Shown piece by piece: positions 4,446-39,067 of a DNA stretch of 64,000 nucleotides. The stretch spans positions 20,456-84,455 of the forward strand of contig JAMPDF010000004.1 of NCBI GenBank assembly GCA_023665755.1, in the 5' to 3' direction. The notes below the pieces were generated by a model, which ran no database searches, was not told the origin of the DNA, and saw only the letters and a program-made list of their open reading frames with translations. Positions within the stretch are counted from its first letter, which is position 1; each line of letters starts with the position of its first letter. The position numbers and the translations under genes were made by a program. The DNA is from Prevotella sp. Its GTDB lineage: Bacteria; Bacillota_I; Bacilli_A; ML615J-28; CAG-313.

Positions 4446-5591
<1,146 letters not shown>

Positions 5592-5722: not shown

Positions 5723-5727
5723 ATTTT

Positions 5728-15018: not shown

Positions 15019-15019
15019 G

Positions 15020-17096: not shown

Positions 17097-19013
17097 CTAG
17101 ATATCATGTCCTTCTATATATAACTTTTTTCTTAATTCTTCTAGAGCAACATTAGTATTTACTGTAGTTGTAACCAATTCAACATCTAAATCTTGTACTT
17201 GTTGTGGCTCCTCATTATAAAATTTTTGAACCGCCTCTACCGCAAGATCAGCCATCGCAGTCATCCCTTTTATATTTGGATGTACTGTATCTACTAAATA
17301 CTCTTTTGAATGAAATGCATTGGCAAAATCAATCAAAGGCAATTGATACTCTTGTGCTAGTTTTTGGATAACTTGGTTAAGTGCTTGCGAATTTGCAATA
17401 TGTTGCAAATAAATGCTTTCTTCTTTAGACTGATAATTGGTTTCATAAGTGAGCGTACACAAAAACAATTGCACTTCTGGATATAATTGATATATATTAT
17501 TTAGCATATTCCGATAAGCTTTTTCGAATTCAGCCTCATTTAATCCATAGGGTGCTGCTAAAGAATCATTCATTCCCATGAATATGATTAAAATATCTGG
17601 TGGCAAATTATCAAATCGCTTAGATTTCAACAATCTTGAAACGGATTCACCTGCAGTAGATGCACCATATTTTTGACTTACACATGTACCACTATACGAA
17701 TTATTGATTCCTAATTTACATCCTATTCGGTCAACAGTCATTTTCCACCAAGTTTGTTCAACTAATAAATCACAGTATTGTGGATAAAAATAACTATATC
17801 CCGCAGGAATATATCCTTTAAACGTCGAAATGCTATCTCCTAAAAATCCCATATATGCATTTTTTAAACTTTTTTCTTCCCATTTTGCATATAGTGTAAT
17901 ATTTCTATGTTCACCCATTTGCAAGATATTATAACGTGCACCACTATAATCCGCCTCTTCATACCAACCTCTAAAATAATATCCTTCTTTGGTTGGTATA
18001 GCAAGAGGAATGGGTTCATACTGAATTTGATTAGGTAAATAAGAAGTCAGTAAATCAGTAGCTATACCCCCGTTTAATTCATATGAAATCGTATAAATTG
18101 GATCAAATCGTGCATACAAATCCATATCCATTGTAATAATTCTACTCATCATAAATACAGTTGTACAAGATTCATCTACACAATAATACATAAATTGATG
18201 ATTTTCTTTAACTGGATCTTCTAACGGATATACAGCCAAAATCGTTTTCCCCTCAGGAACTAAGATTTGAATATTGTCTTCTCCATTATTAGGATGAACA
18301 GTTACAGTATATACACGCGTCCATTTGGCTACCAAATGAAGGTTTTGTGTAATTTTAGTTTCTGGTGAAAACGGCTTACCTGATACATACCACCCCACAA
18401 ATGAATACCCATCTTTTGTAGGTACAACTGGAGTCATGATTTCCTCATAACCGACCTCCTGAGTATCAAGAGGTAAACCGCCATCTGTATCAAAAGTAAT
18501 GGTATATATTTGTTTTTCCCACAATGCATAAAACACACTATTTTCTTTGACCCTATAGGTATCTAGTTGAACTAATTGTTGATCTTTCATCCAACCTTTA
18601 AACACATATCCTTCTCTTTTTGGTGGTTCGATTTGTAATAAATCTCCTGTATTGACAATCATGGTTTGATATATTGCATCCTCATCTTCATAAAAGATAA
18701 CAGTCCGTTGATTGGATTCAAATTTGGCAACCAAAACGATATCTTGTTGGATAGGAGTATCAAAATCAAATTTTGTCCCCTCTTTTTCCCAATGTAAAAA
18801 AGTATAACCTGGTTGAGTAGGTTGATCTATTGGAGATACTGTCTTATTTTTCTTTACCTTTACTATTGTATAGATTTCACCCGTTTCATCTTGGAAAGTG
18901 ACCTGATAAGTTGTTTGACAACTAGACAAAAATAACAAACCAAAAATCATCATACAACCTACTATAAGATATGCTCTATGCCGACCATTCATTTTTATTT
19001 TATTCTTCATCAT
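17097..19013 (-). CDS. Secreted SGNH/GDSL hydrolase with four Listeria/Bacteroides-type (Flg_new-like) repeats
   Basis: Repeats YTFLHWEKEG..VAKF, YVFKGWMKD, YSFVGWYVSGKPF..VAKW and YYFRGWYEE. C-terminal SGNH blocks are GDSIS, GMNDS and DTVHPN. Confidence 0.7.
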   Translation of the reverse strand: MMKNKIKMNGRHRAYLIVGCMMIFGLLFLSSCQTTYQVTFQDETGEIYTIVKVKKNKTVSPIDQPTQPGYTFLHWEKEGTKFDFDTPIQQDIVLVAKFESNQRTVIFYEDEDAIYQTMIVNTGDLLQIEPPKREGYVFKGWMKDQQLVQLDTYRVKENSVFYALWEKQIYTITFDTDGGLPLDTQEVGYEEIMTPVVPTKDGYSFVGWYVSGKPFSPETKITQNLHLVAKWTRVYTVTVHPNNGEDNIQILVPEGKTILAVYPLEDPVKENHQFMYYCVDESCTTVFMMSRIITMDMDLYARFDPIYTISYELNGGIATDLLTSYLPNQIQYEPIPLAIPTKEGYYFRGWYEEADYSGARYNILQMGEHRNITLYAKWEEKSLKNAYMGFLGDSISTFKGYIPAGYSYFYPQYCDLLVEQTWWKMTVDRIGCKLGINNSYSGTCVSQKYGASTAGESVSRLLKSKRFDNLPPDILIIFMGMNDSLAAPYGLNEAEFEKAYRNMLNNIYQLYPEVQLFLCTLTYETNYQSKEESIYLQHIANSQALNQVIQKLAQEYQLPLIDFANAFHSKEYLVDTVHPNIKGMTAMADLAVEAVQKFYNEEPQQVQDLDVELVTTTVNTNVALEELRKKLYIEGHDI

Positions 19014-21014: not shown

Positions 21015-21701
21015 TGATTGTATCCTCTTTTGCATATCAATTGTTTTGACTTGTTTATACTTTTCTTTTTGGCGATGCTTGCGATTTTCTTTGTATAACA
21101 CCTTTGTTTGCTCAAGGTCAGTAAGCAAGCAACTATTTTTATTTTCTTGGTAAAGTAACACACTTTGTGTTAACAATTGAATCTGTGTTAACATCTTATG
21201 ATACAAATAACTTGTATCATGATACTGCATATGTAATGTATTATATGTATGAATGCGATCAATTTGAAAGCTATAATAATATGCATAACAAACCCTTGTA
21301 TCTACGATTTGAATTGTCGCCTTTTTTTGTTGAAAAGTACAAATCAATTGTGGATGTATCAATTTCAGTTCATCATTTTCAATTTGAATATCTATATGAC
21401 CAATACATTCTTCTAGTGGCAATATCAAATTTTTTTCAAATAATTTTCTTTCGAAGTCTTTTTTTATTCTTTGATAATAACTACCTTTTCTATTCTTCTT
21501 GGCCTGAATTAATTGTTGTTGATATATTTTAGTTATCAGATAAAAAATAAGAGGGACTAAAACAACAAGAAAAACAAATAGCAAAGAAAGCCCATGGTGA
21601 AATTCAAAATTAGTCGTTATTTTAAATATGACTAAAATAATAATCCACCACAAGAGAATAATGATATTGCGATACATTGCAAGAAATGTTTTAAATTTCA
21701 T
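21012..21701 (-). CDS. Hypothetical membrane protein (2 TM)
   Basis: Likely start MKFKTFLAMY (ATG 21701..21699), two TM helices, overlaps the psuG stop. Confidence 0.45.
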   Translation of the reverse strand: MKFKTFLAMYRNIIILLWWIIILVIFKITTNFEFHHGLSLLFVFLVVLVPLIFYLITKIYQQQLIQAKKNRKGSYYQRIKKDFERKLFEKNLILPLEECIGHIDIQIENDELKLIHPQLICTFQQKKATIQIVDTRVCYAYYYSFQIDRIHTYNTLHMQYHDTSYLYHKMLTQIQLLTQSVLLYQENKNSCLLTDLEQTKVLYKENRKHRQKEKYKQVKTIDMQKRIQS

Positions 21702-22623
21702 GATGATACGCCTTGGCAATTTGAGCCGCTAACTCACAATTGTGATATACCAATTGAATATTGGAAGATAGACTTTCTCCCTTTGTTAAATCTTTAATCG
21801 TAGCCAACAAGTAAGGTGTAGTTTCTTTTCCTTGAATTCCTAGTTGATGCATCATTTCTAAAGCTTGATCGATGGCTTGTTGCATTAGCGTTTCATCTAA
21901 TGAATATGCTTCTGGTATAGGATTGGTGACCAAAACACCACCATGTAACCCTAAATCCCATTTGGTTTGCAACATATGCGCAATTTCTTCTGGTGTATCC
22001 ATTTGATAATCTACTTGATAGGGACTTGTTCTAGTATAAAAAGCTGGCAATATTGATGTTTGATATCCAATCACAGGAACTCCCTTAGTTTCTAAATACT
22101 CTAAAGTTTTTGGTAAATCTAAAATCGCTTTTGCGCCTGCACATACAACTAGTACATCTGTTTTAGCAAATTCATCTAAATCAGCAGAAATATCCATTGT
22201 AACTTCAGCTCCACGATGTACACCACCAATACCTCCTGTTGCAAAAATAGCAATGTTAGCTAGACTAGCAATATACATCGTAGCACTTACAGTTGTAGCG
22301 CCATCTAGTCTTTTAGAAACAATAACAGGAATATCTCGTCTTGATGTTTTCACTACATCTTTTCCTTTTTTAGCAATATATTCGATTTGAGAAGCATTTA
22401 AACCTACACAAATTTTTCCTTCTATAATGGCAATTGTTGCAGGTACTGCCCCATTTTCTCTAATAATAGATTCACACTGAAGTGCAGTCTCTACATTTTT
22501 TGGATAAGGCATACCATGCGAAATAATGGTAGATTCTAATGCAACAATAGGCAAATGATGCTGTAAAGCATATTGTACTTCTGGACTAATTTGTAAATAG
22601 TTTTCTAATGCATTATGCTTCAC
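21691..22623 (-). CDS. psuG: Pseudouridine-5'-phosphate glycosidase
   Basis: Full-length match to the PsuG/indigoidine-synthase-A-like family (LPIVALESTIISHGMPYP, GGIGGVHRGAE). Confidence 0.85.
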   Translation of the reverse strand: MKHNALENYLQISPEVQYALQHHLPIVALESTIISHGMPYPKNVETALQCESIIRENGAVPATIAIIEGKICVGLNASQIEYIAKKGKDVVKTSRRDIPVIVSKRLDGATTVSATMYIASLANIAIFATGGIGGVHRGAEVTMDISADLDEFAKTDVLVVCAGAKAILDLPKTLEYLETKGVPVIGYQTSILPAFYTRTSPYQVDYQMDTPEEIAHMLQTKWDLGLHGGVLVTNPIPEAYSLDETLMQQAIDQALEMMHQLGIQGKETTPYLLATIKDLTKGESLSSNIQLVYHNCELAAQIAKAYHHEI

Positions 22624-24715
22624 TTGCTACCTCCGGCAATAAATGAATAACAGATGTTGATTGATATGTTTTGCCATTTCTTTGTACTTTTACTTGGAAT
22701 TGAACATCTACAGGTTGCTTTACTTCTTTGTTATAATAAAGCCCATTGGCACCCTTTATAAACAAATTATCCAATACGGATTCTGTAGAACTATATGTAT
22801 CAGTTGACAAATCATATGTTACACTAGACTGTCCAAAATATTTTTGAAGTAAATATTCCATCCGAATCATTTCTAAAAATTCTTCATAGCGAGCTGTACG
22901 AATCAAATAGCTTGGACATTCTTTACCTTTTGGATCCATATCATGATGACGTTTTACATTATCCATATTAAGATTATACTTTAACATCAAACTTGCAACT
23001 AGTTTAGCGTTATTTGCTAATGTACCTTCATAATTACCATCTTGATTTACACACATTTCAATACCAATACCATTGTTATTTCCTGTACCTCTTGTTGCAG
23101 TACCATCACTTGCATGCCAACAAATGATATTATCTGCAAAACTTTGATAAATACTATAAGCATCTACTTGATAATTCCAAGAAGCCTCACGTCCACCATC
23201 TTGGAAAGCATAACGATATTGCATACTAGCTAAGAATGCTGCATTTTGCCCATTGATAGTCATTGCACTTTCATGAACCACTACCCATAAAACATTATCT
23301 TCATTTGGCATTTGATAGCCTTCATAAAATCTACTATCTAAAGTACTTTGTGGAACAGTTGGTTTATATACTGTACCTAATGTACCAGAACCAAAAAACT
23401 TAGCTACAAAATCAGTTCTTTTTTCATCAATTAAATATTCCTTGTTCACATTGAGTGGTGTAGTTTGGAATAAATTTAATACACCATATGAGTTGATTCT
23501 TTCTTGATAATCTAAATAAAGCTCATCATTGTATTCTTTATGTAAATGATTAATTGAACCTTTTAATTCTATTTTGCTATAAGCATCTAATAAGGCTTGT
23601 AAATATGTATCCTCATCAATCATTCCGCCCACTTGTTTTAAATCAAATTCCATTGTGCTACTACTACCTTCATATTTAATTACACATTTTAAACGTACAT
23701 CGGTTTTTTCCATTGGTGTCAATACCACTTGATCTAAAACAATAAATTCAGGAACATTTGCACTCCATGCTAAATCTGTTTCATATGTATCACAATATAG
23801 TGGCAATGTGCTTTCTTTTCCTTCTGCAAATGCAGTTACCATTTGTTGAACCTCTGTTTTTGCAAGATCTACTCGCTTTAAGCCACTCCAAGCAGATACA
23901 ATTACTTCGGTAGGATATATAATGGCTATTCCATCTTTGATAACATATATATTTAAAATAACAGTTTGATCTCGTTTACCTTGGGTAATTTCACCCTTTG
24001 ATGTCATAATATTTGAATCTAGGCTCTCATATAAAACAGAACATCCATTGTAATCTCTTGTAATCAATGTTACATTTTTATTTAATGCTTTGGCGACTTT
24101 TGTTTGATAATAATTATATGCATAGTCGTAAGCACCTTTAGATACACTCGTTGTTTTTACTGTAATTTGATAATTTCTTTTGTAAGTTGTTCCATCAATT
24201 GTTATTTCGGCAACTAAAATTACCTCTTTATCCGCATCTTGATATACAAGTGTACCATCATCCAATAATACATCGTGGTCAAGCGATGTCCACTTGATAT
24301 CATACGTTTCCAATTGTTTTGGCAAAACAAGCGCTGAAGAAGTCTCTTGAGGAAGTAGGGATTCCAATTGTTGATCAATTAAATCTTTTGAGAAAACTTT
24401 TTGACAAACAGAACAATAACTTCCCTTATCATAAGTAGCATTCACTATCGTATGTCCTAATGCTTCCCCTTCTGTACTATGACACCTATCACAAGTTTTT
24501 GGATTTTCACAATCTGCATCTTTCCAGTTATGTCCAAGAGGAGAACCCTCCGTTGTTTGACATACACTACACATTTTTGCATTTGTACAAGTAGCCTCTA
24601 CCCATGTATGGCCATTTTGTTCACATTCACTTTTTGGCTTATTCTTTTTGCACCCTATTAAAGAAAGTACGCAAAGTAACATAATTATACATAAACCATA
24701 TCCTTTTTTATTCAT
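22613..24715 (-). CDS. Lipoprotein N-acetylmuramoyl-L-alanine amidase (amidase_2/PGRP domain) with an N-terminal Cys-rich repeat module
   Basis: Lipobox LIGC. There are 2.5 repeats of HxW.EATC....C..C..TEG..LGH. The C-terminal amidase_2 region reads WVVVHESAMT...GIGIEMCVNQDG...CPSY. Confidence 0.7.
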   Translation of the reverse strand: MNKKGYGLCIIMLLCVLSLIGCKKNKPKSECEQNGHTWVEATCTNAKMCSVCQTTEGSPLGHNWKDADCENPKTCDRCHSTEGEALGHTIVNATYDKGSYCSVCQKVFSKDLIDQQLESLLPQETSSALVLPKQLETYDIKWTSLDHDVLLDDGTLVYQDADKEVILVAEITIDGTTYKRNYQITVKTTSVSKGAYDYAYNYYQTKVAKALNKNVTLITRDYNGCSVLYESLDSNIMTSKGEITQGKRDQTVILNIYVIKDGIAIIYPTEVIVSAWSGLKRVDLAKTEVQQMVTAFAEGKESTLPLYCDTYETDLAWSANVPEFIVLDQVVLTPMEKTDVRLKCVIKYEGSSSTMEFDLKQVGGMIDEDTYLQALLDAYSKIELKGSINHLHKEYNDELYLDYQERINSYGVLNLFQTTPLNVNKEYLIDEKRTDFVAKFFGSGTLGTVYKPTVPQSTLDSRFYEGYQMPNEDNVLWVVVHESAMTINGQNAAFLASMQYRYAFQDGGREASWNYQVDAYSIYQSFADNIICWHASDGTATRGTGNNNGIGIEMCVNQDGNYEGTLANNAKLVASLMLKYNLNMDNVKRHHDMDPKGKECPSYLIRTARYEEFLEMIRMEYLLQKYFGQSSVTYDLSTDTYSSTESVLDNLFIKGANGLYYNKEVKQPVDVQFQVKVQRNGKTYQSTSVIHLLPEVASEA

Positions 24716-24864
24716 TTTATATTACCTCTTTTCTACCCTCATATTATAACATATTTTTTTGAAAAAGCAAATACCTAAACCAATAATTTTGCCCTTCTTG
24801 TCTAAACAATACATCTTTTTAATAAAAAAACTTTCCCAATAAGGAAAGTTTCGCTAAATCATTT

Positions 24865-26727
24865 TTAATATCTTGGGCCTCCAAATCCCCCTCCTGGACG
24901 ATTGGGACCTACAGCTTTTCCAATTTGATTTAAAATATTTGTCAATGTTACCGACTGATTATTTGCACCTACTGTAATAGTATACGTGTGTTGTAGGATA
25001 AAATCTGGTAAACTCACAATTAAAGATTGAAATTGTTTTTTGGATATTGTTTCAAATAAAATATCACTAGACTCATTTTGAATTTGCACTTTAGTATTGG
25101 CTGACACCATATTCGATAAATTATATGATACAAAACACTGTTCCGAATTTTTAGATGGGGTCTCAACCATTCCTGATGATCCCATAGCAATTACAATTCC
25201 CCCATTTATTAAAATTCCTCTATCTGCATCAATGGCAGCATCTCCATTAGATACTGGTCCATGAACAATTGTAATGCCCCCTGCAAATTCAATTGTACCA
25301 TTACTATCTATCCCATCTCCTAAGGCATCAATTTGAATATTTCCTCCACCAATATATATATTGAAGTCATATTGTGATAAATCTTTGTTTGCAGCATTAA
25401 GTGCATCATCCCTACTAATGATATCAATTCGACCACCATAAATTTCTACTTTGGCACCTTCAATACCTTCATAACATTTAGAAATGGTTATATCTCCAGA
25501 TACTATTTTGGAAACGTATTCTGCATGAATACCATCATCACCACTTTCTATTTCAAATGTACCACTTTGAATAATCAGATTCCCTTTAGAAGAAATCGCA
25601 TCACTATTGCTATTGATTATATATTTCCCACCATCAATGACAAGCATATAGTTATGCTCACATTGAGAAACTAAATCTATTTTAGTAGTATCGGTTACAT
25701 ATTCAATCCCATCTACTTTTATGGCTTTTCCATCCGCATGATCCGATGAATATTCTGTAATAATATCGGGTGCACCTGTATTGGTCGTAATATCAATAAC
25801 TATATCATCATCATTTTCTATATATAAAAATGAATTGGCTGAAATACCATCATCACCAGATACTATTTTCATTCCTGTATTATGAATATAGATATATCCT
25901 TGATAAGGGTCTTTTGTATATATGTCTTTTTCCTCTTCAGTTTCTGCCTCAATTCCTGTTTTTATACCATCTCCTAAAGCATTAATTTCTAAAGTGGCAT
26001 CTGTCAAGTTGATTCTTTCATCTGCTTTTATCCCATTGTTGGGTACATTCATGTGGATTGTTGTACCAAAAATATCTAATTCTTTTTTTACCTTTAAACC
26101 AGTTGTATCTTCACCTTTTGCATTTAAAATCAATTTACCTTTTCCATTGATAACTAAACTTGACTTTTTAGCTTGAATAATGGCTGAGTCTCCATCTATT
26201 TTTGTATCAGCAGAACTATCTGATAAATAATTTAATGTATTTTCTTGAACAGTCAATATTCTCATTCCATCATTTTTTGCAAATACAAGTGGGGCTTGTG
26301 CTTGATTATCTTTAGTTTCAATTGTTACATTATTTAAAATGATTCTTACGTAACTTGGTTTACCAGAAATAGAAATTGCACCACAAAATGTCGAAGTAAA
26401 CATATATACTCCATCTTTGATAATGGTGAATACATCTTCTTGATACGTATAATAATCTGTATTCTCATTTTCTACTAGTTTGGATAAATCTATTTGTATG
26501 GCGTCAGTTGTAGATGTATCTAACAATTCTTCACTTGGATGCAATACCTTTTCTAAATTGACCAAACTATCTTTTTGAATAGTAGATAGATCTGATTTTT
26601 CACCTGTTTGACCACCTCCTAAATGATCAAAATCAGGATTTTCTTGATTCATTTTACATCCTACTAATCCTATCCCCATAAACACTATCAATGCCAAATA
26701 AACTATCTTTCTAAACATTTTTTCCAT
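24865..26727 (-). CDS. Lipoprotein with parallel beta-helix repeats, Cthe_2159-like carbohydrate-binding family
   Basis: Lipobox LVGC. Repeated GDDGI/GDGI(D/K) motifs (GDDGISANS, GDDGIHAEY, GDGIDSNGT) are typical of beta-helix Cthe_2159-type proteins. Family assignment is from memory. Confidence 0.4.
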   Translation of the reverse strand: MEKMFRKIVYLALIVFMGIGLVGCKMNQENPDFDHLGGGQTGEKSDLSTIQKDSLVNLEKVLHPSEELLDTSTTDAIQIDLSKLVENENTDYYTYQEDVFTIIKDGVYMFTSTFCGAISISGKPSYVRIILNNVTIETKDNQAQAPLVFAKNDGMRILTVQENTLNYLSDSSADTKIDGDSAIIQAKKSSLVINGKGKLILNAKGEDTTGLKVKKELDIFGTTIHMNVPNNGIKADERINLTDATLEINALGDGIKTGIEAETEEEKDIYTKDPYQGYIYIHNTGMKIVSGDDGISANSFLYIENDDDIVIDITTNTGAPDIITEYSSDHADGKAIKVDGIEYVTDTTKIDLVSQCEHNYMLVIDGGKYIINSNSDAISSKGNLIIQSGTFEIESGDDGIHAEYVSKIVSGDITISKCYEGIEGAKVEIYGGRIDIISRDDALNAANKDLSQYDFNIYIGGGNIQIDALGDGIDSNGTIEFAGGITIVHGPVSNGDAAIDADRGILINGGIVIAMGSSGMVETPSKNSEQCFVSYNLSNMVSANTKVQIQNESSDILFETISKKQFQSLIVSLPDFILQHTYTITVGANNQSVTLTNILNQIGKAVGPNRPGGGFGGPRY

Positions 26728-26781
26728 TTTATTATCTCCTTATATTCTTGCATATTCATTATACTTTACCATAATGAATTT

Positions 26782-27423
26782 TTACTGAATAAATTTGAGA
26801 ATATCAGAGAATGTTTTAGCAATCATTTCTACACCATGTACTTTCAAAAACGCTTCTCCTCTAAACCCCCAAGCAGCTCCGATACAAGGTAATTGTGCAT
26901 TTTGTGCAGTTAAAACATCTATATCACTATCTCCTACATATACTGTAGTAGCAGGATCTGCTTGAAGTTGTTTCATTGCTAAATCTACCATATCTCTACT
27001 TGGTTTTTTGGCATAACCTGGTTGTTCACCAATCATTACATCCATATACTTACCAAATAAAGGTGTACATATTTCAGTTACCCCTTGTTGATATTTATTC
27101 GAAACAATGGCCATTCGGATACCTTTTGCTTTCAAAACTGCTAATGTTTCAAATACACCTTGATAAGGTGCTGTTTTATTTGTTTTATTTTTTTCATAAT
27201 GGGTTAAAAAGGTTTGGTAAACCGCGTCAAAATTTTTTATATTTTGAGGAAGGGCTCTTTCAATCATAACTCGAATACCACTACCTACAAAAAATTTAAC
27301 CTCTTCATAAGTATGTGTAGCATATCCCTCTTTTGCCAGTGCATAGTTTAAACTATCAGCCAAATCATCTAGTGTATTCAGTAAAGTACCATCTAAGTCA
27401 AAAATAATTGTTGTATATTTCAT
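26782..27423 (-). CDS. HAD-superfamily hydrolase (phosphatase)
   Basis: Motif I FDLDGTLLNT, motif III K, motif IV GDSDIDV. Confidence 0.8.
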   Translation of the reverse strand: MKYTTIIFDLDGTLLNTLDDLADSLNYALAKEGYATHTYEEVKFFVGSGIRVMIERALPQNIKNFDAVYQTFLTHYEKNKTNKTAPYQGVFETLAVLKAKGIRMAIVSNKYQQGVTEICTPLFGKYMDVMIGEQPGYAKKPSRDMVDLAMKQLQADPATTVYVGDSDIDVLTAQNAQLPCIGAAWGFRGEAFLKVHGVEMIAKTFSDILKFIQ

Positions 27424-27431
27424 TTGCCTAC

Positions 27432-28226
27432 CTATTTGAACTTTCTTCTATCATAATCATATTCTGGATCTATTTCACCAAAAAAGCGTCTTCCAGTTTT
27501 CATTGTAGCAATACTTGCTTCCATAAAAACATCTTTATATTTAGATTTACTTAAAGTAGAATTGCTATATCCTTGTTCAATGATTTCTAAATTCAAAAGC
27601 ACGCCATCTACCCAAACAAACCCCAAATATCTACCATATGTTTCTGTTCTAGCCCCTTCTGCTTCTAGAACAATTGTTTTCGCTTCATTTAATCTTGCTT
27701 TGGTATAACGTGATGCTGCAAGACCCCAAGGATCTTCTCCCGCATATACTTCTGGTGTATCTATACCAAGAAAACGAAGTTTAAATGTTTGCCCTGTAAT
27801 GATATCTTCAAAGGTCGCCGTATCACCATCTGTACCATAAACTAACCTAACTTGACCTACTCCATCTTGAATGAAACTCTTTCCTTCCCATTCAAAATCC
27901 ATTTCTAATGTACTAGATAAAGTAGAAGTTAACGGAAGTACAGTAGTATAAATTGATAGATGTTTATCTTTGGGATACGAATCTCCAGCACAATAACCAT
28001 TTCCATATCGAACAAATTGATTTAATTCATCATCACTTTTAATGATTTGTTTCTCAAAATAAAAAGAATAAGTAATATCATAATCTGCTAATTTTTCTAT
28101 AATTTGTTCTCTTGTCATTCCTGTTAAATCAGGTAATATCAATTTAGTAGAATCTACAATACCTGTTGTACATCCTACAAGTAATAAAACTAAACATATA
28201 TATCCTGTTATCCACAATTTTCTCAT
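27432..28226 (-). CDS. Lipoprotein thermonuclease (staphylococcal nuclease/SNase-like)
   Basis: Lipobox LVGC. SNase core reads VRLVYGTDGDTATF...FLGIDTPE...YGRYLGFVWVDG. Confidence 0.75.
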   Translation of the reverse strand: MRKLWITGYICLVLLLVGCTTGIVDSTKLILPDLTGMTREQIIEKLADYDITYSFYFEKQIIKSDDELNQFVRYGNGYCAGDSYPKDKHLSIYTTVLPLTSTLSSTLEMDFEWEGKSFIQDGVGQVRLVYGTDGDTATFEDIITGQTFKLRFLGIDTPEVYAGEDPWGLAASRYTKARLNEAKTIVLEAEGARTETYGRYLGFVWVDGVLLNLEIIEQGYSNSTLSKSKYKDVFMEASIATMKTGRRFFGEIDPEYDYDRRKFK

Positions 28227-28385
28227 TATACTTTCTCCTTTTTGAATTGTATTATATCATACTTTTTTCTTTTTTTCAATCATTACTTCTCCTTGTAAAT
28301 TTTCTATTTACATATAAGTATTGTTTTTTTTTGATTTATTTGTTATAATAAATTGTAATTTTATAAAAACGTATACAAAATTATG

Positions 28386-28431
28386 ATTTGTAATAAAGCT
28401 GTGAAAACATTTTAAGCTCTTTATTACAAAT
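28386..28431. promoter_or_regulatory. 13-bp inverted repeat (atttgtaataaag / ctttattacaaat) containing a WalR-like direct repeat TGTAAT-N5-TGTGAA, about 230 bp upstream of the CHAP hydrolase gene
   Basis: Read from the sequence. One mismatch to the TGTWAH-N5-TGTWAH WalR consensus. No T-run follows. Confidence 0.25.
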
Positions 28432-28644
28432 GTGTCAATATGTTTTGCATGTTTGCTCTATCCATCTAAATAAGCACAAAATTTTATCTAAAAAATTCTA
28501 CTTTTGCACATTGTGATGTTCATCCATTTCAATTTTGTTGCAACGAGTGTAACAAATTAGATAAAATGTATGAATGGTGTAAAACATTTGAACTATGTTT
28601 TCATAGGCATAATAAATAATTTATTAAAAGAAAGGTAGATGAGA

Positions 28645-30378
28645 ATGAAGAAAAGATTATTTTTTATTTTAATGTTTGCGTTATGTATTTGTACAAGTTG
28701 TAAAAAAACACCCCCAAAAAGTGAGTGCGAACAAAATGGTCATACATGGCAAGAAGCTACTTGTACTAGCGCTAGAACGTGTACTATTTGCCAAAAAACA
28801 GATGGTAATGCTCTTGGTCATGATTGGATAGATGCCACTTGTTTTTCACCCAAAACTTGTTCTGTTTGTCATGCAACAGAAGGAACTGCTCTTAATCATA
28901 TTTGGGCAGAGGCTACTTGTACTTTGGCAAAACACTGTACACTATGTAATATGACAGAAGGATTACCGCTTGAACATCAATATACAGAACCTACTTTAGA
29001 TGATCCTGCAACTTGTACTTTGTGCGGACACACTAAAGGAACCCCCTTATCTCCAATTCAATACGATTTGATAATAGACTATATATCCATCGATGAGACT
29101 ACAATGATTTGGATAGATGATTATTTTGAACTCGATCCTTTTGATATCACTTACACTCAAGATAATATTATTCAAATTGATCGTTTTGGCACAATTAAAG
29201 CTCTTCAAGTAGGAAAAACCAAAGTAAAATTTACCTTAAAAGCTAATCCACTTTTGTATTTCGAATTTGATTTCGAAGTTATTCCTAAGATGCCGAGTAT
29301 TTATGTTACTTATGAAAAAATGACCATTGGCGATAGTACTCATATTTATTTTAGAGATAAATCTATGTGCATTGACGATTACGATATTACATTTTCTAAT
29401 CATTCTTTAGTACTAAAACCCGACTTATCAATTGAAGCTGTTCAATATGGTTCTAGTAAGATTACTATTACATCTAAACTAGATCAACGGTTAACCGCAA
29501 CTTGCGAAGTATCTGTTGTTAATAAAGATAGCTTTTTATTACTATATGCGGAAAACAAGACAGAATCAGTTCCTGCTGGTGAAAGATTTAGAATGTCTAA
29601 TTCTTTCAATTTGTCTAATGATAATTTGGTATGGATTAGTTCTAATAAAGAGGTTGCTGTAGTATCGGATAAAGGCGTTATTACCACAAAATCAGAAGGA
29701 TACACTATTATTAGTGTTTATGATAAAAACAACATCAATGATAAATCCAAAAAAACTAACTTTTATCTAGATGTGACTGGTTCTATTGAAGTCGATTATT
29801 TAAGTCGGTTTATCCTAACCGCTCTTGAAGAAAACGGGACAGAGGAAGTTGGAAATAACATTCAAAAATATGGTGAATGGTATCCGAACAATGGTCAACC
29901 TTGGTGTGCAATGTTTGTATCTTGGTGTTGGAATCAAGCAGGTTTATCCACAGATATTTTGTGTAAGTATCAAGGATGTACTGCAGGTATGAAATGGTGT
30001 ACTGAAAATGGTATTATGCATTACGTTCAAGATTTCCGCTTTAGCGAACCATTAGAACAAGGGGCTTCACAAAATCAATATAAAGAAGATTATAAACCTG
30101 TAACAGGAGACATTGTGTTCTTCTTAAGTAGCGGAATGTCTCATACTGGCATTTGTATTTATGCAGACGATACCTATCTATATACCATTGAGGGCAATAC
30201 TTCAGATCGTGTGGCCATTAAGAGATGGTCTTTACAAGATGCTAGAATTACTGGTTACGCTCATCCAAAATATCCTGAATATAGTGGTGTTCGAGAAGAT
30301 TTTAGTTGGATTAAAGAACTCAAAAACGATGGTACTTACTGGTGGACAAATGTTTCTGAACAACAAAAAGTAGATTAA
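28645..30378 (+). CDS. Lipoprotein peptidoglycan hydrolase: Cys-rich repeat module, two Big_2-like Ig domains, then a C-terminal CHAP domain
   Basis: Lipobox CTSC. Four repeats of HxW.EATC....C..C..TEG..L. The CHAP catalytic Cys/His context is GQPWCAMFVSWCW...SHTGICIY. Confidence 0.7.
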   Translation: MKKRLFFILMFALCICTSCKKTPPKSECEQNGHTWQEATCTSARTCTICQKTDGNALGHDWIDATCFSPKTCSVCHATEGTALNHIWAEATCTLAKHCTLCNMTEGLPLEHQYTEPTLDDPATCTLCGHTKGTPLSPIQYDLIIDYISIDETTMIWIDDYFELDPFDITYTQDNIIQIDRFGTIKALQVGKTKVKFTLKANPLLYFEFDFEVIPKMPSIYVTYEKMTIGDSTHIYFRDKSMCIDDYDITFSNHSLVLKPDLSIEAVQYGSSKITITSKLDQRLTATCEVSVVNKDSFLLLYAENKTESVPAGERFRMSNSFNLSNDNLVWISSNKEVAVVSDKGVITTKSEGYTIISVYDKNNINDKSKKTNFYLDVTGSIEVDYLSRFILTALEENGTEEVGNNIQKYGEWYPNNGQPWCAMFVSWCWNQAGLSTDILCKYQGCTAGMKWCTENGIMHYVQDFRFSEPLEQGASQNQYKEDYKPVTGDIVFFLSSGMSHTGICIYADDTYLYTIEGNTSDRVAIKRWSLQDARITGYAHPKYPEYSGVREDFSWIKELKNDGTYWWTNVSEQQKVD

Positions 30379-30382
30379 AATG

Positions 30383-30415
30383 AAAAGATAAAGCGAGTTG
30401 CTTTATCTTTTTTTA
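30383..30415 (+). terminator. Rho-independent terminator (gataaagcgagttgctttatc + T7)
   Basis: 8-bp stem and a U-run right after the CHAP gene stop. Confidence 0.7.
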
Positions 30416-30454
30416 GAATTGGTATATAATGTTAGCGTTTGAAAAAACATATAT

Positions 30455-30536
30455 ATCCTAATGGGGAGCATCTGCTGAGAGGTTATTTAGTTAACGACCC
30501 AAAACCTGATCTAGGTAATGCTAGCGTAGGGAAACA
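30455..30536 (+). promoter_or_regulatory. TPP (thiamine pyrophosphate) riboswitch, THI element
   Basis: UGGGGAGC...CUGAGAGG...AACCUGAUCUAGGUAAUGCUAGCGUAGGGAA matches the THI-box consensus (CUGAGA and ACCUGAUCUGGAUAAUGCCAGCGUAGGGAA). A hairpin atgcaaatt..aatttgcat follows as the expression platform. Confidence 0.85.
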
Positions 30537-30625
30537 TGCAAATTTTCATTTTGTTGAATTTGCATATCTTAGCAATGTTCTTTGGATAAAACCAAAGAAT
30601 TTTTTTGTTAATAGGAGGTTTTATA

Positions 30626-31207
30626 ATGAAACATATTTTTGGTTTTACTGTAAGAGATATAGCTGAAATTGCTATATTATGTGCTATCGCTGTAGTACTA
30701 GACAAATTTGTGAAATTGTCTATTGGTGCAACAGGTGGATCTATCAATATTGCCATGGTACCACTTTTTATTATTGCTTTAAGACATGGCTGGTTTAAAG
30801 GCTTAATTGCTGGAGGACTCGTTTATGGTCTTATTAGTTGTTTATTAGATGGATACGGCCTAATTACTTATCCACTAGAATATCTTGTTGCTTTTGGATC
30901 AGTTGCAATTACTGGTTTAGTGGCAAAATGGATTAATCAATTCTATTTGAATAAAACTACAAAAAGTGTTATACTATCTTTCTTATGTTTAATCGGTTCT
31001 ATGCTTGCTGCATTTATCATTCGTTTCATCTGTGGTTCAATAGACTCTGTTCTTCTTTACGATTATACTTGGTCAGCTGCTTTTGTTTACAATGCCCCAT
31101 ACGTATTTATATCTGGTGCTGCCGTAGCAGTAATTATGTGTCTTCTTTTACCTAGTATTGTTTTACTAAATCGTGAATATCCTACTCAATATTTAAAAGG
31201 TGAATAG
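30626..31207 (+). CDS. thiT: ECF-transporter substrate-specific (S) component, probable thiamine transporter
   Basis: About 190 aa with 6 TM, typical of ECF S components, and directly downstream of the TPP riboswitch. RBS AGGAGG precedes ATG 30626. Confidence 0.6.
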   Translation: MKHIFGFTVRDIAEIAILCAIAVVLDKFVKLSIGATGGSINIAMVPLFIIALRHGWFKGLIAGGLVYGLISCLLDGYGLITYPLEYLVAFGSVAITGLVAKWINQFYLNKTTKSVILSFLCLIGSMLAAFIIRFICGSIDSVLLYDYTWSAAFVYNAPYVFISGAAVAVIMCLLLPSIVLLNREYPTQYLKGE

Positions 31208-34814: not shown

Positions 34815-36875
34815 CTATTGAGGATTATATTTATCTCCATTATTGAAATAACCAAAAGTAAATGCCATACCTTGATAATACATACATAGATATTCACCTT
34901 GATATATTGCATTCGTTGGATCTACAATTTGTGAATTGGTAATATCAAATAAACCATTTGTTGTACCATATGCATATCCTGCAGTTGCTGTAGCTGCAGA
35001 AGTTTGGAATACAGGTGCACCTTGTCCACCTGCTTGTGCAAGCAAACCTGCAATATATGGATTATTTTCACCAAATTCAAATGCTTGGTAATTATCAAAT
35101 TGAAGTGATCCTTTGATAATGTCATTGGTTAATCCTTCAGCATCACCTGATTTATTGACACAGATTAAATTCATATATGTTAATGTATTATCTAAATTGC
35201 TCTTTAAGAATGAACGACCAAATGGTGTAAATAGCGCATTTAATCCTTTGATTTGTGGTACAAAAGCACTTGCTTTTACCACAGTAAACCAACCTTCACT
35301 ACCTGTTACATAAGATTCTAATGTAGAATTTTCAATAAATGTTTTAGCAGGATATCCACCATTAGCCGATTTTGGACTTACATGGTCTTGAATAATAACT
35401 GGACCACCAGCACCAATCATTTCAGAATCCTTAATAGTTACTTTGTCAGAACCCCAGTTATATACAAAGCAGTTGAAAGAATCATATGCACGACATTTTT
35501 CAATCAAATATGGTTGAGATGTACGATTAGGGAAATATGCAATAAATGAACAAGATGTAATATTGTTATAAGCAGTGAATGTACCTGCTTCTACCTTCAT
35601 GAAAATTTGACCACCTGATTTGATTACATTTTCAACGCGTGGTGCATTACCAATGATGTTCACGCCTTCAATTGAAGATGTAGCTGTTTCAGCGCCTCGT
35701 AATTTAATTAATGTAGCATGAGAAATCACTTCTCCTTCTGCAACAATTTTATTGTCACCACGAACTACTTCTTTAAAAGATTGTGTATCTAATGTAAAAT
35801 AGTTTCCATAGATATGTAGTTCTTCATCATCTACTAATTCTCTAATATAAAAATCCATCCAGTCTTTCATAGAACCAAGTGCTCTTTCATAGTCAGAATC
35901 AGATTTTGAAAGTTCATGTTCTTGATAGAAGAAATAGCTTGGTACATCTTTTGCGGTAAGAACAATATCATTTTGGAAAATAAATGCTTGTGGATGAAAG
36001 TCAAGTTGTAATCCATTTTCAGTCTTGAATGCATTCCATGCCTCTGCTTCATTACCACTTTTTCTATTTTCTAAATAAGCAAGTTCTTTTGATGTATAAA
36101 CGTTATATCCGTCTACTACATCAAATTCATACGTTACTGTATATTTTTCTTTATTTTCTAATTGCTTTTCAGTTAATCCTTTTGGTAATACAGAGATTTG
36201 GAATGATTGACCAATTGCTTCTTCTGAGAAGTCTACTGTGCAAGCAACATAATCTAATTGTTCTACATAACGATTCAAATTTGTTTCATCTAAAACAACA
36301 TAATCACCATTTTCTAAAATAGCAATTGTAATTTCATATTCCCAAGATTCTACTGTAGTTGGTGTTGTTTTTCCTGTTGCAAGTTCATATTTTACAAAAC
36401 TAACCTTAGGTTCTGCACGCCAAGGATTATCATCACCTACTAAGTAATTTTTTGTCAAATCCATAAATTCAATACGCTTATTGTCTTTTTCTTTTTTATT
36501 GGCTTGATATAGCACAATATTAGAAGGCAATTGTACATCATTGATTAGTATTTTATTTTGTGATGCATCTACTTCCCATCTTGCATATAAAGTAATACTT
36601 TCGTTTACTACTTCTTCAAATGTATATTCAGTTGCATATGTTTTTTCTAAATACCAACCTTTAAATTCATACCCTTCTCTTGTAGGGTCTTCTGGCTTTT
36701 CAACCTTTTGACCTTCTTCTACTTCAACTTCTTTAATGGTGGATCCACCCATTGTGTCAAATGTAACCTTATATGTCTTGGTTTCTATACATGAAGCCAT
36801 CAAAAGACCAAAGACTACAAAGATGCCTAATAAGAAAACTTTTTTTAAACTCTTCATATTTTTCTCCTTTTTCAT
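34815..36875 (-). CDS. Surface lipoprotein with one Listeria/Bacteroides-type repeat and a large uncharacterised (beta-helix-like) domain
   Basis: Lipobox LMASC. Repeat YKVTFDTMGGS...YEFKGWYLEK...LYARW. The remainder has no recognisable catalytic motif. Confidence 0.5.
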   Translation of the reverse strand: MKKEKNMKSLKKVFLLGIFVVFGLLMASCIETKTYKVTFDTMGGSTIKEVEVEEGQKVEKPEDPTREGYEFKGWYLEKTYATEYTFEEVVNESITLYARWEVDASQNKILINDVQLPSNIVLYQANKKEKDNKRIEFMDLTKNYLVGDDNPWRAEPKVSFVKYELATGKTTPTTVESWEYEITIAILENGDYVVLDETNLNRYVEQLDYVACTVDFSEEAIGQSFQISVLPKGLTEKQLENKEKYTVTYEFDVVDGYNVYTSKELAYLENRKSGNEAEAWNAFKTENGLQLDFHPQAFIFQNDIVLTAKDVPSYFFYQEHELSKSDSDYERALGSMKDWMDFYIRELVDDEELHIYGNYFTLDTQSFKEVVRGDNKIVAEGEVISHATLIKLRGAETATSSIEGVNIIGNAPRVENVIKSGGQIFMKVEAGTFTAYNNITSCSFIAYFPNRTSQPYLIEKCRAYDSFNCFVYNWGSDKVTIKDSEMIGAGGPVIIQDHVSPKSANGGYPAKTFIENSTLESYVTGSEGWFTVVKASAFVPQIKGLNALFTPFGRSFLKSNLDNTLTYMNLICVNKSGDAEGLTNDIIKGSLQFDNYQAFEFGENNPYIAGLLAQAGGQGAPVFQTSAATATAGYAYGTTNGLFDITNSQIVDPTNAIYQGEYLCMYYQGMAFTFGYFNNGDKYNPQ

Positions 36876-37393: not shown

Positions 37394-39067
37394 TTACCCC
37401 TGTATTTCATAATAATATGCTTTAATTTTTTTCAAAAACATATATAAACTAGAGCCAAAAATAACTAAACTAATCAATAATAACTTCACAAAACCAATCG
37501 TCAAATCATTATTATATAAACTAGCCTCTGATAATAGCTTATAGGCAACAACCGCATAAATAATAGAAATAATAAATGCAAGTCCTGTAGATTTATTTTC
37601 ATTTGGGTTATCAATGGAAACACCAGTTGTGGCATATTGCTCATTTTGAGGATGAATGATATCTAATGTAGCACTATATATCATGTGACCTATATGTAAA
37701 AATAAGATTGCAAAACCAAATAAGACAATATCACCTACATGAAACTGCACAGAATGACCAAAAATAGCTACAGTTGCAAATACGCTTGGTATAGAAAACA
37801 AGATATTAAAGAATAACTTAGCAAGTAGCGGATAAACCGCATCAATAGGCTTTGTTTTCTTCATATATCCGGCACGTCCTTCTCTACTATAATAAGTAGA
37901 AATCAGTGCATTAGAAGCCAAAAGCGGTAAACAAATCAATAATACATTAAATGTATAAATTAGCCAATTTCCTAGTTCTCTTGTATCCATAGCTTTATAA
38001 ATGGCGTTTAGTAGTAGAATTAAAATAGGTACAATAATATAAACCATTAAATAATTAATTGATATATCAATTGTTCTTAAATTAATCTTAAATTCTTTAT
38101 TGACAAAAGTCAAATAATGCCCATGCTTTTTATTTTTTCCATTTGTTTTATTGCTTTTGTTTAATTCAAAATTTTTAGCCATCATCACAAAGAATAATGG
38201 TCTAGACGCAAAATAAGATATAAAGAATAAAATAGCAGATACTCCAATTAAAATAGCAAATTTACCTATGGTAAAGAAATTGATACCAAAAGCGCCACCT
38301 TTTGACTGTTCACCAATCATAATTCGAATCAACTGATTCATTAGAAATAATTTTTGTTCTACAAGTAGTAAAAATTCACGAATACTATTTCGAATGGTTG
38401 GCCATTGGTTAATCAAATCAATATTTTCTGGGATAAGACCTATCAAGTATACTGCAAGCCAAATAAGTCCAGCAAGTACGAGTAGAAAAACAATAAACTC
38501 TATGATTGCGTTTTTCTTCAAAAATCTATAGATATATAATACCGGTATAGAGAAAATAGCACCAAGCAATACTGGAAGCGCTACAATCAACAATAATGGT
38601 ATCCACATCCAAATATATACCCAAAATGAACAATAACCCTGTGTAAATAATAACGTAATACAAGACAAGCTAATAGGTATTAATAAACTAAAACTTTTCT
38701 TTAATTCATATACATAAAATACAATAATCTTAGAAATAAAAATCTGATTGGCTCTAACGGGTAAAGTAATTAATACTCTATTATCTTCTGCAAAATATAA
38801 ATTTTTCATTAATTCTACTGTACAAGAGATAAAAGATAAGGCCAGTGATATAGTGAGTACAAGTACCATAATCCGTGGTGATTCATCATATAAAAAGATA
38901 CCAAATCGATTACACAATGATAAAATAATATATATAACTGCCGTAATAATAAGAAATTTAACCAAGGATAAAATGACTTTTCGTAAAGCTTCTTTCTTAT
39001 TTTTAATCCACCCTAAATCAATCTTATCCCGAAGTTGCATCACGACAAGTGTCTTCAAGTGATTCAT
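37394..39067 (-). CDS. Polytopic membrane protein, putative ABC-2-type permease partner
   Basis: At least 12 predicted TM helices over 557 aa; the start is adjacent (3 nt) to the stop of the ABC ATPase gene. Confidence 0.45.
   Translation of the reverse strand: MNHLKTLVVMQLRDKIDLGWIKNKKEALRKVILSLVKFLIITAVIYIILSLCNRFGIFLYDESPRIMVLVLTISLALSFISCTVELMKNLYFAEDNRVLITLPVRANQIFISKIIVFYVYELKKSFSLLIPISLSCITLLFTQGYCSFWVYIWMWIPLLLIVALPVLLGAIFSIPVLYIYRFLKKNAIIEFIVFLLVLAGLIWLAVYLIGLIPENIDLINQWPTIRNSIREFLLLVEQKLFLMNQLIRIMIGEQSKGGAFGINFFTIGKFAILIGVSAILFFISYFASRPLFFVMMAKNFELNKSNKTNGKNKKHGHYLTFVNKEFKINLRTIDISINYLMVYIIVPILILLLNAIYKAMDTRELGNWLIYTFNVLLICLPLLASNALISTYYSREGRAGYMKKTKPIDAVYPLLAKLFFNILFSIPSVFATVAIFGHSVQFHVGDIVLFGFAILFLHIGHMIYSATLDIIHPQNEQYATTGVSIDNPNENKSTGLAFIISIIYAVVAYKLLSEASLYNNDLTIGFVKLLLISLVIFGSSLYMFLKKIKAYYYEIQG

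Follow-up and report, generated by a model that had tools for sequence, protein, structure and literature searches.

Two lipoprotein peptidoglycan hydrolases, encoded by a divergent pair of genes that we call A and B, carry the same tandem array of 26 aa Cys/His repeats immediately after a short N-terminal cap, and we favor with modest confidence the interpretation that this module is a short, rigid, variable-length stalk of metal-binding Cys3-His knuckles and that the two hydrolases attack other bacteria. The stalk would be a rod running from the lipid-anchored Cys up to the enzymatic part of each protein (amidase_2 in A and CHAP in B), and its rigidity and length are properties that we infer. 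The genes lie as an inverted pair in the 64-kb stretch of DNA that was analyzed (the window), with three other genes between them, as follows (nucleotide positions in the window; the unit coordinates of A and B were checked by translation):

22613..24715, minus strand: gene A, lipoprotein N-acetylmuramoyl-L-alanine amidase, 700 aa (ORF, Pfam and AF2); signal peptide, cap, three Cys/His units, helix, aBig_2-like beta domains, Amidase_2 and C-terminal beta domain
24650..24715, minus strand: A signal peptide with lipobox LIGC (MNKKGYGLCIIMLLCVLSLIGC); Cys22 is the predicted lipid-anchored residue
24611..24649, minus strand: A N-cap KKNKPKSECEQNG, with Cys31 as proposed fourth ligand in site 1
24533..24610, minus strand: A repeat unit 1 (HTWVEATCTNAKMCSVCQTTEGSPLG)
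24455..24532, minus strand: A repeat unit 2 (HNWKDADCENPKTCDRCHSTEGEALG)
24380..24454, minus strand: A terminal unit (HTIVNATYDKGSYCSVCQKVFSKDL); His1 and CxxC are kept and Cys8 is absent (Tyr95)
22910..23296, minus strand: A Amidase_2 catalytic domain (Pfam PF01510, 61.7 bits, cut-off 26; fold match to XlyA, PlyL and PlyG)
24865..26727, minus strand: Cthe_2159-family lipoprotein, lipobox LVGC (Pfam E 1e-47); a variable insert of the locus
26782..27423, minus strand: HAD phosphatase without signal peptide; kept in the locus among relatives
27432..28226, minus strand: SNase-type nuclease lipoprotein, lipobox LVGC; adjoins B in all relatives
28639..30378, plus strand: gene B, lipoprotein CHAP peptidoglycan hydrolase, 579 aa (ORF and Pfam); signal peptide, cap, four Cys/His units, Ig-like region with Big_2, and CHAP
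28639..28701, plus strand: B signal peptide with lipobox CTSC (Cys21); orthologs have TSC lipoboxes
28702..28740, plus strand: B N-cap KKTPPKSECEQNG; Cys30 is the proposed cap ligand, and AF2 predicts a short helix at aa 29-33
28741..28974, plus strand: B repeat units 1-3 (28741-28818, 28819-28896 and 28897-28974)
28975..29052, plus strand: B terminal unit (HQYTEPTLDDPATCTLCGHTKGTPLS); His1 and CxxC are kept and Cys8 is absent (Leu120)
29887..30198, plus strand: B CHAP catalytic domain (Pfam PF05257, 33 bits, cut-off 26); putative catalytic Cys in PWCAMF and His in MSHTG

A preliminary description of this DNA had proposed that two lipoprotein hydrolases share a post-lipobox cap and ~26 aa repeats, each with three Cys and one His, fused to two different peptidoglycan hydrolases, and the ORFs, lipoboxes and Pfam domains of both genes bear this out; its calls for the genes between them (Cthe_2159-like, HAD and thermonuclease) also agree with Pfam, the nuclease being an SNase lipoprotein. 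Its count of 2.5 or 4 repeats holds as to tandem 26 aa units and is better given as two full units plus a terminal unit without Cys8 in A (HTW..., HNW... and HTIVNATY...) and three full units plus one terminal unit in B (HTW..., HDW..., HIW... and HQYTEPTL...). After the lipobox both proteins read KK..PKSECEQNG, in which PKSECEQNG is the common cap, followed by units of the consensus H-x-W-x2-A-T-C-x5-C-x2-C-x4-G-x3-G (26 aa). The first unit begins 13 aa past the lipobox Cys, the array ends ahead of the enzyme body, and in the 64-kb window the motif is found in the A and B ORFs only. Lipid anchoring is predicted for both proteins from a signal peptide and lipobox (LIGC22 in A and CTSC21 in B), and C22 of A is invariant in an alignment of 64 homologs. 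Pfam places aBig_2 at aa 128-188 and Amidase_2 at aa 474-602 (E 1e-16) of A, and Big_2 at aa 320-371 and CHAP at aa 417-520 of B. The amidase domain has a zinc site with a catalytic Lys, its residues H481, H590, K598 and C600 are invariant across the 64 homologs, and Foldseek matches it to the endolysins XlyA (E 1.7e-11), PlyL and PlyG and also to AmiA/AmiE, in keeping with a T7-lysozyme/PGRP fold. B itself had no exact match in public assemblies.

How widespread is the repeat, and has it been described? A profile of double repeats, a search that the preliminary description had proposed, matched 9,718 cluster representatives (50%-identity clusters); these matches, together with E values down to 7e-27 for the module in unrelated metagenome proteins, place the repeat far beyond chance. 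HMM scores of the units in A and B themselves carry no weight here, since the model was built from those units. When A, B and repeat-rich relatives were scanned, the repeat had no Pfam-A or NCBIfam family above cut-off and no PDB counterpart, and the matches to C1_1, rubredox_RCKP and zf-C2H2 in Pfam/NCBIfam, all below cut-off, were judged spurious. The module is thus novel in having no such counterpart, as had been claimed, but it is not peculiar to A and B. Its carriers are mostly secreted proteins or lipoproteins with many mutually unrelated partner domains (LRR_5, dockerin, cohesin, SBP_bac_3, M23, trypsin, transglutaminase and others), and those identified are strict anaerobes (Clostridia and Anaeroplasma). 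Secreted proteins of all kinds in anaerobic Firmicutes carry it, typically straight after the lipobox (the first unit lies no more than 12 aa from the lipobox Cys in 40/71 short hits and 35/150 long hits), and the unit also exists as a long variant of ~40 aa. By sequence, the repeat is a very large, uncatalogued family carried by surface proteins of anaerobic Firmicutes. Our literature search found no description of extracellular or tandem zinc-ribbon repeats, nor of Anaeroplasma lytic enzymes, and a survey of fibrillar-adhesin stalk domains does not mention a Cys/Zn stalk.

The case for a stalk comes from 99 lipoprotein homologs of the amidase body, in which 17 to 341 aa separate the lipobox Cys from that body. 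Plain or G/E/P-rich linkers fill this stretch in 49 of them and 1-8 knuckles in the other 50, and spacer length tracks knuckle number with r = 0.98. Because the same position can hold anything from a 17 aa linker to 341 aa of repeats, we read the module as a stalk of variable length. Tandem repeats stand between the anchor and the functional domain in A, B and the homologs, and copy number varies (0-8 knuckles among the 99) with the functional domain conserved. At closer range the unit numbers of A and B are identical in the window and in relatives L001 and L002, and the L003 ortholog of B differs in unit composition. Two observations speak against a stalk: half of the amidase homologs work without one, and a rigid stalk is not obviously useful on a substrate-binding lipoprotein that also carries the repeats (P0090).

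Such a stalk would be similar in plan to the periscope proteins (SHIRT, Rib and the G5-E repeats of SasG/Aap), which have surface stalk repeats (PMC8201768, PMC9704523). In both cases a run of tandem repeats separates the anchor from the functional domain and differs in copy number among homologs; the array presumably fixes how far that domain stands off the cell surface. Periscope repeats differ in being Ig-like/beta-sandwich folds of 70-130 residues without structural metal sites, in proteins that are wall-anchored at the C-terminus, and they are near-identical in DNA, whereas the units here are 26 aa long and Cys/His-based, the DNA of A and B is ~54-74% identical beyond the cap, and a scan of positions 22000-31000 found no direct-repeat family over the units.

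Might the repeats instead be a targeting or adhesion module, comparable to LysM, SH3b or choline-binding repeats, that binds a wall component, a glycan or a partner protein and so brings the hydrolases to their substrate? Their fusion to two different peptidoglycan hydrolases in one locus would suit such a role, as would the conservation of several non-ligand positions and the presence of SH3_3, M23 or Hydrolase_2 domains in some family members. We nevertheless consider it unlikely, since the identical type of repeat precedes unrelated domains (ABC substrate-binding proteins, LRR, dockerin/cohesin and proteases), orthologous amidases have G/E/P-rich linkers or nothing in its place, and a membrane-proximal location is the worst one for substrate binding. 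The known wall-binding families also give no match: the LysM, SH3b, CW_binding_1/2, SLH, PG_binding_1 and SPOR profiles are absent from A and B at E <= 1 in Pfam/NCBIfam.

If the repeats form a stalk, what would hold so short a unit together? Among 832 distinct internal units, defined by CxxC spacing alone, the potential zinc-knuckle ligands His1, Cys8, Cys14 and Cys17 are 100% conserved, Ala6 is 95% and Gly22 96% conserved, and the CxxC lies at a beta-turn in the AF2 models (below); a CxxCG motif placed there is classically the mark of a zinc knuckle. Conservation is also high at roughly half of the non-ligand positions (T7, P11, K12, T13 and T20), and this could point to a binding surface and not to structure alone. 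Cys8 is absent in 0/1445 units that are followed by a further His1 and in 43/128 that are not (Fisher p = 8e-51), and in a looser test H...CxxC follows 1430/1495 units with Cys8 and 1/39 without it (p = 6e-47), p-values that overstate independence because the 1,614 units in these statistics are related sequences. The 39 units without Cys8 are all distinct and belong to 35 proteins, and loss of Cys8 is confined to the last unit of an array. At the other end, an extra Cys or His lies upstream of 174/261 first units versus 5/1128 internal units, and position -2 is Cys in 30% and His in 20% of first units and either one in 0% of the internal units (n = 1128). Interchange of Cys and His is typical for metal ligands and not for disulfides.

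The module probably binds metal, and these patterns suggest a scheme in which Cys3His sites are probably interleaved between adjacent repeats, not one to each sequence repeat: a site would be made of Cys8 of unit n-1 with His1, Cys14 and Cys17 of unit n, the fourth ligand of the first unit would be the cap Cys or His directly upstream, and each unit would most likely have one Zn(II) bound. This arrangement uses each module Cys exactly once, with 9 Cys and 3 His forming three sites in A and 12 Cys and 4 His forming four in B. Two other assignments were considered and rejected. With one site per unit, made of its own His1, Cys8, Cys14 and Cys17, the cap Cys would have no role and each terminal unit would be short of one ligand, and a site of CxxC(n) with His1(n+1) and Cys8(n+1) does not fit the terminal units, which keep CxxC and lose Cys8. 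The zinc-knuckle reading of the preliminary description is therefore favored by the sequence statistics as regards metal, but its placement of one site in each repeat probably does not hold. In the interleaved scheme each unit would be a three-stranded beta meander with its two turns pinned by two successive metal sites, so that the units would be stapled end to end into a rod.

AF2 models of the N-terminal module, which had also been suggested at the outset, are compatible with this scheme as far as the protein chain is concerned (AF2 does not model metals). In B (aa 1-145) the pLDDT over the repeats is 94-98, and in A it is 82-92 over the repeats and 91.5 for the full length. Each unit is predicted to have three short strands with CxxC at the beta2-beta3 turn, and the resulting course of the chain (forward, back, forward) is the one that interleaved sites would need. 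The repeat has weak Foldseek matches, almost all of which are to Zn domains (Parkin IBR/RING, RNA polymerase zinc ribbons, C1 and TFIIB), and no significant sequence or fold likeness to a described zinc-ribbon family (Zn_Ribbon_1, DZR, rubredoxin etc.). With zinc ribbons and knuckles (TFIIB, the Rpb9/A12 ribbons, rubredoxin knuckles), which are among these weak neighbors, the repeat shares short beta strands, a beta-hairpin turn that bears the CxxC(G) knuckle, and a set of four Cys/His ligands in every ~25-30 residues; it differs in being tandem, exported and lipid-anchored, and its proposed Cys3His ligands are supplied by two adjacent units and not by the two knuckles of a single domain. The H-x12-C-x2-C spacing is also the start of the C1 motif, and in C1 and cross-braced Zn domains (RING and IBR) the ligands of neighboring sites are likewise interleaved along the chain. 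Membership of Pfam C1_1 (PF00130) was rejected: A reaches 16.4 bits (E 0.008), below the cut-off of 26.5, over profile positions 1-24 of 53, and the score of repeat-rich relatives is a sum of N-terminal fragments with no significant stretch. Overall only the first ~19-24 of the 53 positions align, the repeat lacks the second half of the full C1 motif (H-x12-C-x2-C-x13/14-C-x2-C-x4-H-x2-C-x7-C), and C1 is a closed, two-site intracellular domain, whereas the repeat is an open-ended extracellular array.

Cys-rich repeats outside the cell are as a rule held by disulfides, and the A and B modules are exported, so a stalk or spacer held by disulfide bonds rather than by metal must be weighed. We judge it distinctly improbable, given that the Cys number is odd (3 per unit, and 9 in the mature A module), that His1 varies no more than the Cys residues do (it is present in 100% of the 832 units), that the cap position accepts Cys or His interchangeably, that CxxCG at a beta-turn is a zinc-knuckle signature, and that the known carriers are strict anaerobes, in which thiols stay reduced outside the cell.

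What, then, would the proposed stalks of A and B hold their enzymes out toward? Anaeroplasmas have no cell wall, and the Mollicutes are a class defined by the absence of one. From its sequence relationships the host is an Anaeroplasma, a wall-less rumen/gut mollicute of a classically bacteriolytic kind: window proteins are 97% identical to those of an Anaeroplasma bactoclasticum MAG (the window DNA is only ~92% identical to the MAG of that name), the nearest genomes are Anaeroplasma and Acholeplasmatales, and NCBI taxonomy places these in the Mollicutes. The Gram-positive setting assumed in the preliminary description thus does not apply, and with such a host A and B are unlikely to be autolysins. 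They probably attack other bacteria, in what would presumably be lysis of prey, and together with the neighboring nuclease lipoprotein they would most likely act on the walls and contents of those bacteria (bacteriolysis and nutrient scavenging), the cell's own envelope not being their target. The catalytic domain of A resembles that of XlyA, PlyL and PlyG (36% identity and TM 0.82 with XlyA; Zn ligands His/His/Cys plus Lys conserved), but A differs from these endolysins in being a lipoprotein that has, besides its signal peptide, a stalk and several aBig_2-like domains, in having no SH3b, PG_binding or Amidase02_C wall-binding domain, and in lying outside any phage context. That A and B are nevertheless ordinary autolysins that remodel the wall of an effectively walled Firmicute seems very improbable; Amidase_2 and CHAP lipoproteins are common Firmicutes autolysins (PMC6403190) and our view of the host covers the 64-kb window and its MAG relatives only, but the nearest genomes are mollicutes, a scan of the ten largest window ORFs turned up no wall-synthesis genes, and the amidase domain is of the endolysin type. 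Anaeroplasmas are anaerobic mycoplasmas, some of which are bacteriolytic (PMC5981327, PMC5165256, PMC8941964).

The 5' portions of A and B are also similar in DNA. The near-identical inverted stretch of ~36 nt that had been reported is real: it codes for PKSECEQNGHTW, is identical at 33/36 positions with all three differences synonymous, and lies within inverted arms of 185 nt (24468-24652 and 28699-28883) that are 72% identical and have longest perfect runs of 11 nt. A-to-B identity is ~0.8 in the cap and 0.54-0.74 beyond it, with no difference between the window, L001 and L002; orthologs are 0.8-0.98 identical, well above this. Because the A-B identity is equal across genomes and far below ortholog identity, the similarity is old and kept by selection at the protein level. 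The suggestion that the shared segments arose by duplication or gene conversion in recent times and, as inverted repeats, cause the intervening 4-kb block to flip is scarcely credible in spite of the 185-nt arms, their core and an unusual cap (Cys at -5) that A and B share and the L003 orthologs lack, since codon identity is not clearly raised in the cap (10/14 identical codons versus 18/29 in the remainder), the window is collinear with each of the three related genomes, none of which shows a second orientation, long identical inverted repeats are lacking, and no recombinase gene is seen among the Cthe_2159, HAD and nuclease genes between the arms. The Cthe_2159-family gene is missing from the corresponding position in L002 and L003.

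A broader proposition, possible but in our view doubtful, is that the 26 aa unit and its ~40 aa variant make up a very large, undescribed class of extracellular metal-stapled rods of strictly anaerobic Firmicutes, with Cys3His sites shared by adjacent units, and, jointly, that A and B are the bacteriolytic enzymes of A. bactoclasticum-like mollicutes. Counting against the second part, and against a bacteriolytic role of A and B in general, the classical lytic factor of A. bactoclasticum was reportedly diffusible, and A and B are lipoproteins. Were the rod class real, this type of stalk would suit strict anaerobes, in which thiolate-metal sites survive outside the cell, and interleaved Cys3His sites would be an unusual case of zinc-finger-like structural chemistry outside the cell, giving rods of adjustable length. 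About ten thousand protein clusters from gut and rumen anaerobes carry the repeat without a Pfam-A or NCBIfam entry or a solved structure, and in places it is mislabeled today as a eukaryote-type C1 domain; defining the family would improve the annotation of many large surface proteins. A and B are candidates for the bacteriolytic activity behind the name Anaeroplasma bactoclasticum, and through these two genes that old observation becomes testable.

The repeats that the preliminary description had placed on two lipoprotein peptidoglycan hydrolases, encoded as an inverted pair, are confirmed by the open reading frames, their translation and the DNA similarity between the two genes, which are the following:

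22613-24715, minus strand: gene A, 700 aa, signal peptide ending LIGC22, Pfam aBig_2 and Amidase_2 domains
28639-30378, plus strand: gene B, 579 aa, signal peptide ending CTSC21, Pfam Big_2 and CHAP domains

These divergently oriented lipoprotein genes are separated by three others that encode a Cthe_2159-family lipoprotein, a HAD phosphatase and an SNase-type nuclease lipoprotein, the last of which adjoins B in all relatives examined. After the lipobox both proteins continue with KK..PKSECEQNG (PKSECEQNG is called the cap below) and then with 26-residue units of consensus H-x-W-x2-A-T-C-x5-C-x2-C-x4-G-x3-G; by translation-checked coordinates the full units number two in A and three in B, and each array closes with a terminal unit, which in A lacks the first Cys (ATY; PTL in B). 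Among the ORFs of the 64-kb window only A and B contain the motif. At its 3' end the amidase gene runs 11 nt (22613-22623) into the start of a pseudouridine-5'-phosphate glycosidase-like gene (21691-22623); the two also adjoin each other in L001 and L003, which are related genomes, and in a metagenome gene call (P0311) PF04227 is fused with Amidase_2.

The repeat is real, well defined, very widespread and uncurated. Neither Pfam-A nor NCBIfam holds a family for it, and their sole matches, all sub-threshold, are to positions 1 to ~20 of the eukaryotic C1 profile, which opens with an identically spaced H-x12-C-x2-C. A sequence search of PDB chains gave no match (the best, E 0.042, is a C1 domain), and literature searches found no description of the repeat. 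The claimed novelty stands in these respects, but the repeat is not private to this locus: a profile built from eight double repeats and searched against 1.84 billion cluster representatives matched 9,718 proteins at E ≤ 1e-3, of which 2,041 reach E ≤ 1e-30. Some matched proteins exceed 6,000 aa and have dozens of units each; the N-terminus is hydrophobic in 132 of the best 150, and the first unit starts at most 12 residues from a lipobox-like Cys in 40/71 short and 35/150 long ones. Partner domains are varied extracellular modules (BspA-type LRR, DUF6273, dockerin, cohesin, Flg_new, SH3_3, M23, trypsin, transglutaminase and ABC substrate-binding proteins), and the few carriers with organism names are Clostridia (Hominenteromicrobium, Acutalibacteraceae, "Clostridia bacterium"). 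The repeat is akin to zinc knuckles and surface stalk repeats and is not a categorically new system.

A long variant of ~40 residues (H-x10-C-T-x2-G-x5-CxxC-x10-LGH), also without a Pfam family, is mixed with the short unit in many proteins and substitutes for it in one B ortholog. The two are interchangeable in orthologs (L003 6550-8238; a further locus, L004 1751-10936; database proteins P0242, P0258, P0272 and others), and the long variant prevails in giant proteins, among them one of 3061 aa from Acutalibacteraceae. One amidase homolog (P0352, a homolog of A) has a third, ~22-aa mini-repeat with a CxC knuckle, HTHEY[IV]xG[IV]CSCGEKDPxY, in the same stalk position. Pfam C1_1, the eukaryotic phorbol-ester/DAG-binding domain, scores spuriously on the family (40/78 proteins at E < 1e-3) by summing matches to its first ~19 positions, and it is present in precomputed annotations; the proteins concerned are P0074 and 39 others of the repeat-rich alignment A3, and P0011, P0013 and P0015. 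Such labels are likely a systematic error in the annotation of bacterial proteomes.

How might the Cys and His residues be used? Among 832 distinct internal units, picked solely by their 26-residue CxxC spacing, all have His1 and Cys8, conservation of Ala6 and Gly22 is ~95%, and 93% have an aromatic residue at position 3. Cys8 is missing in 0/1445 units that have a following unit versus 43/128 without a following His (p = 8e-51), and any downstream H...CxxC accompanies 1430/1495 Cys8-containing versus 1/39 Cys8-less units, the latter from 35 proteins (p = 6e-47). At the position two residues ahead of His1, 30% of first units have an additional Cys and 20% a His, whereas no internal unit does; a short H-x6-CxxC cap closes some arrays. 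The simplest reading is that each site would consist of His1, Cys14 and Cys17 of one unit and Cys8 of the preceding unit, a cap residue serving as fourth ligand for the first unit. Under this interleaved scheme every Cys of the window modules is used once, with proposed sites C31/H36/C49/C52, C43/H62/C75/C78 and C69/H88/C101/C104 in A and four such sites in B. Disulfides in place of metal are less favoured, since Cys and His exchange in the cap, the His never varies and the Cys count is odd, all of which argues for a metal site. The array-end effects are left unexplained both by a scheme in which each sequence repeat forms its own site and by one that pairs CxxC with the His and Cys8 that come next.

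In the AF2 models (pLDDT over the module 94-98 in B and 82-92 in A) each unit has three short strands, and CxxC lies where strand 2 turns into strand 3; this forward-back-forward path would be the one required if successive sites pin each unit's two turns. Foldseek neighbours of the module are non-significant and nearly all Zn domains; the metal and the geometry of the putative sites we infer.

The body of A (aa 116-700), used as query, retrieved a family of aBig_2 plus Amidase_2 lipoproteins; in 99 of them, 17 to 341 residues separate the conserved body from the lipid-anchored Cys. Forty-nine of these 99 homologs have a short or G/E/P-rich linker without Cys and the other 50 have 1-8 knuckle units, segment length following unit number with r = 0.98; the repeats thus take the linker's place and vary freely beside a conserved enzyme. 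A substrate-binding module fits less well than a spacer or stalk, given that the repeats vary like a linker, have partner domains unrelated to one another and lie close to the membrane.

The inverted DNA similarity between A and B spans 185 nt at 72%, and the near-identical core of ~36 nt in the preliminary description has 33/36 bases the same. The Cys of their common cap is at -5, unusual relative to the common -2 and absent from the 58%-identity orthologs (L003), so the two modules share an origin within the Anaeroplasma lineage. The recent duplication or gene conversion proposed from this similarity is not borne out: A-to-B DNA identity is equal in the window, L001 and L002 (~0.8 in the cap, 0.54-0.74 beyond) and below that of orthologs (0.8-0.98), and identical codons among identical residues are 10/14 in the cap versus 18/29 elsewhere, with no sign of recent or ongoing conversion in either comparison. 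Nor is inversion of the intervening block supported, as each of the three related genomes aligns collinearly with the window, differing just in the presence or absence of two genes. The Cthe_2159-family gene (24865-26727) lies between the HAD and amidase genes in the window and L001 and is missing there in L002 and L003, and is thus an indel in an otherwise conserved locus. L001 encodes a 374-aa GNAT-like protein (5182-6306) directly upstream of its CHAP gene; window 28368-28638 retains just ~160 nt and ~60 nt of that gene's two ends, so it has been deleted here. A 22-nt inverted repeat (28386-28431; 82% complementary, 2-nt loop) in the nuclease-CHAP intergenic region falls within this remnant.

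Full-length A is modelled at pLDDT 91.5, and its catalytic domain resembles the endolysin amidases XlyA (E 1.7e-11, 36% identity), PlyL and PlyG; none of H481, H590, K598 and C600 varies among 64 homologs, and the CHAP Cys and His are present in B. Closest to the window is an Anaeroplasma bactoclasticum MAG (97% protein, ~92% DNA identity), followed by one from uncultured Bacilli (93%) and one from Acholeplasmatales (58%). Anaeroplasma is placed in the Mollicutes, which are wall-less, and the ten largest window ORFs include further surface hydrolases (GDSL lipase, GH18) and no wall-synthesis genes. For these reasons A and B, with a nuclease lipoprotein alongside, are more likely directed at other bacteria or at scavenged wall fragments. 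Lysis of other bacteria is on record for some anaeroplasmas (PMC5165256 citing Robinson et al. 1975; PMC5981327; PMC8941964).

The large surface proteins at 17097-19013, 34815-36875 and 54493-56733 (GDSL lipase, GH18 glycosidase and one without assigned function) bear Listeria-Bacteroides (Flg_new) repeats, not Cys/His units, and suggest a rich set of surface degradative enzymes. For the large ORFs 12811-15054, 15020-17005 and 37394-39067 (747, 661 and 557 aa) Pfam gave nothing at E ≤ 1e-5; the first two also adjoin each other in L001.

The module is most readily taken as a metal-stapled stalk of variable length with interleaved Cys3His sites; here it bears two peptidoglycan hydrolases, and the host is a wall-less mollicute that is probably bacteriolytic. 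The weight of the finding lies in the size of the unannotated repeat family, in an unusual extracellular metal chemistry, if confirmed, and in a testable tie between A and B and Anaeroplasma bacteriolysis.
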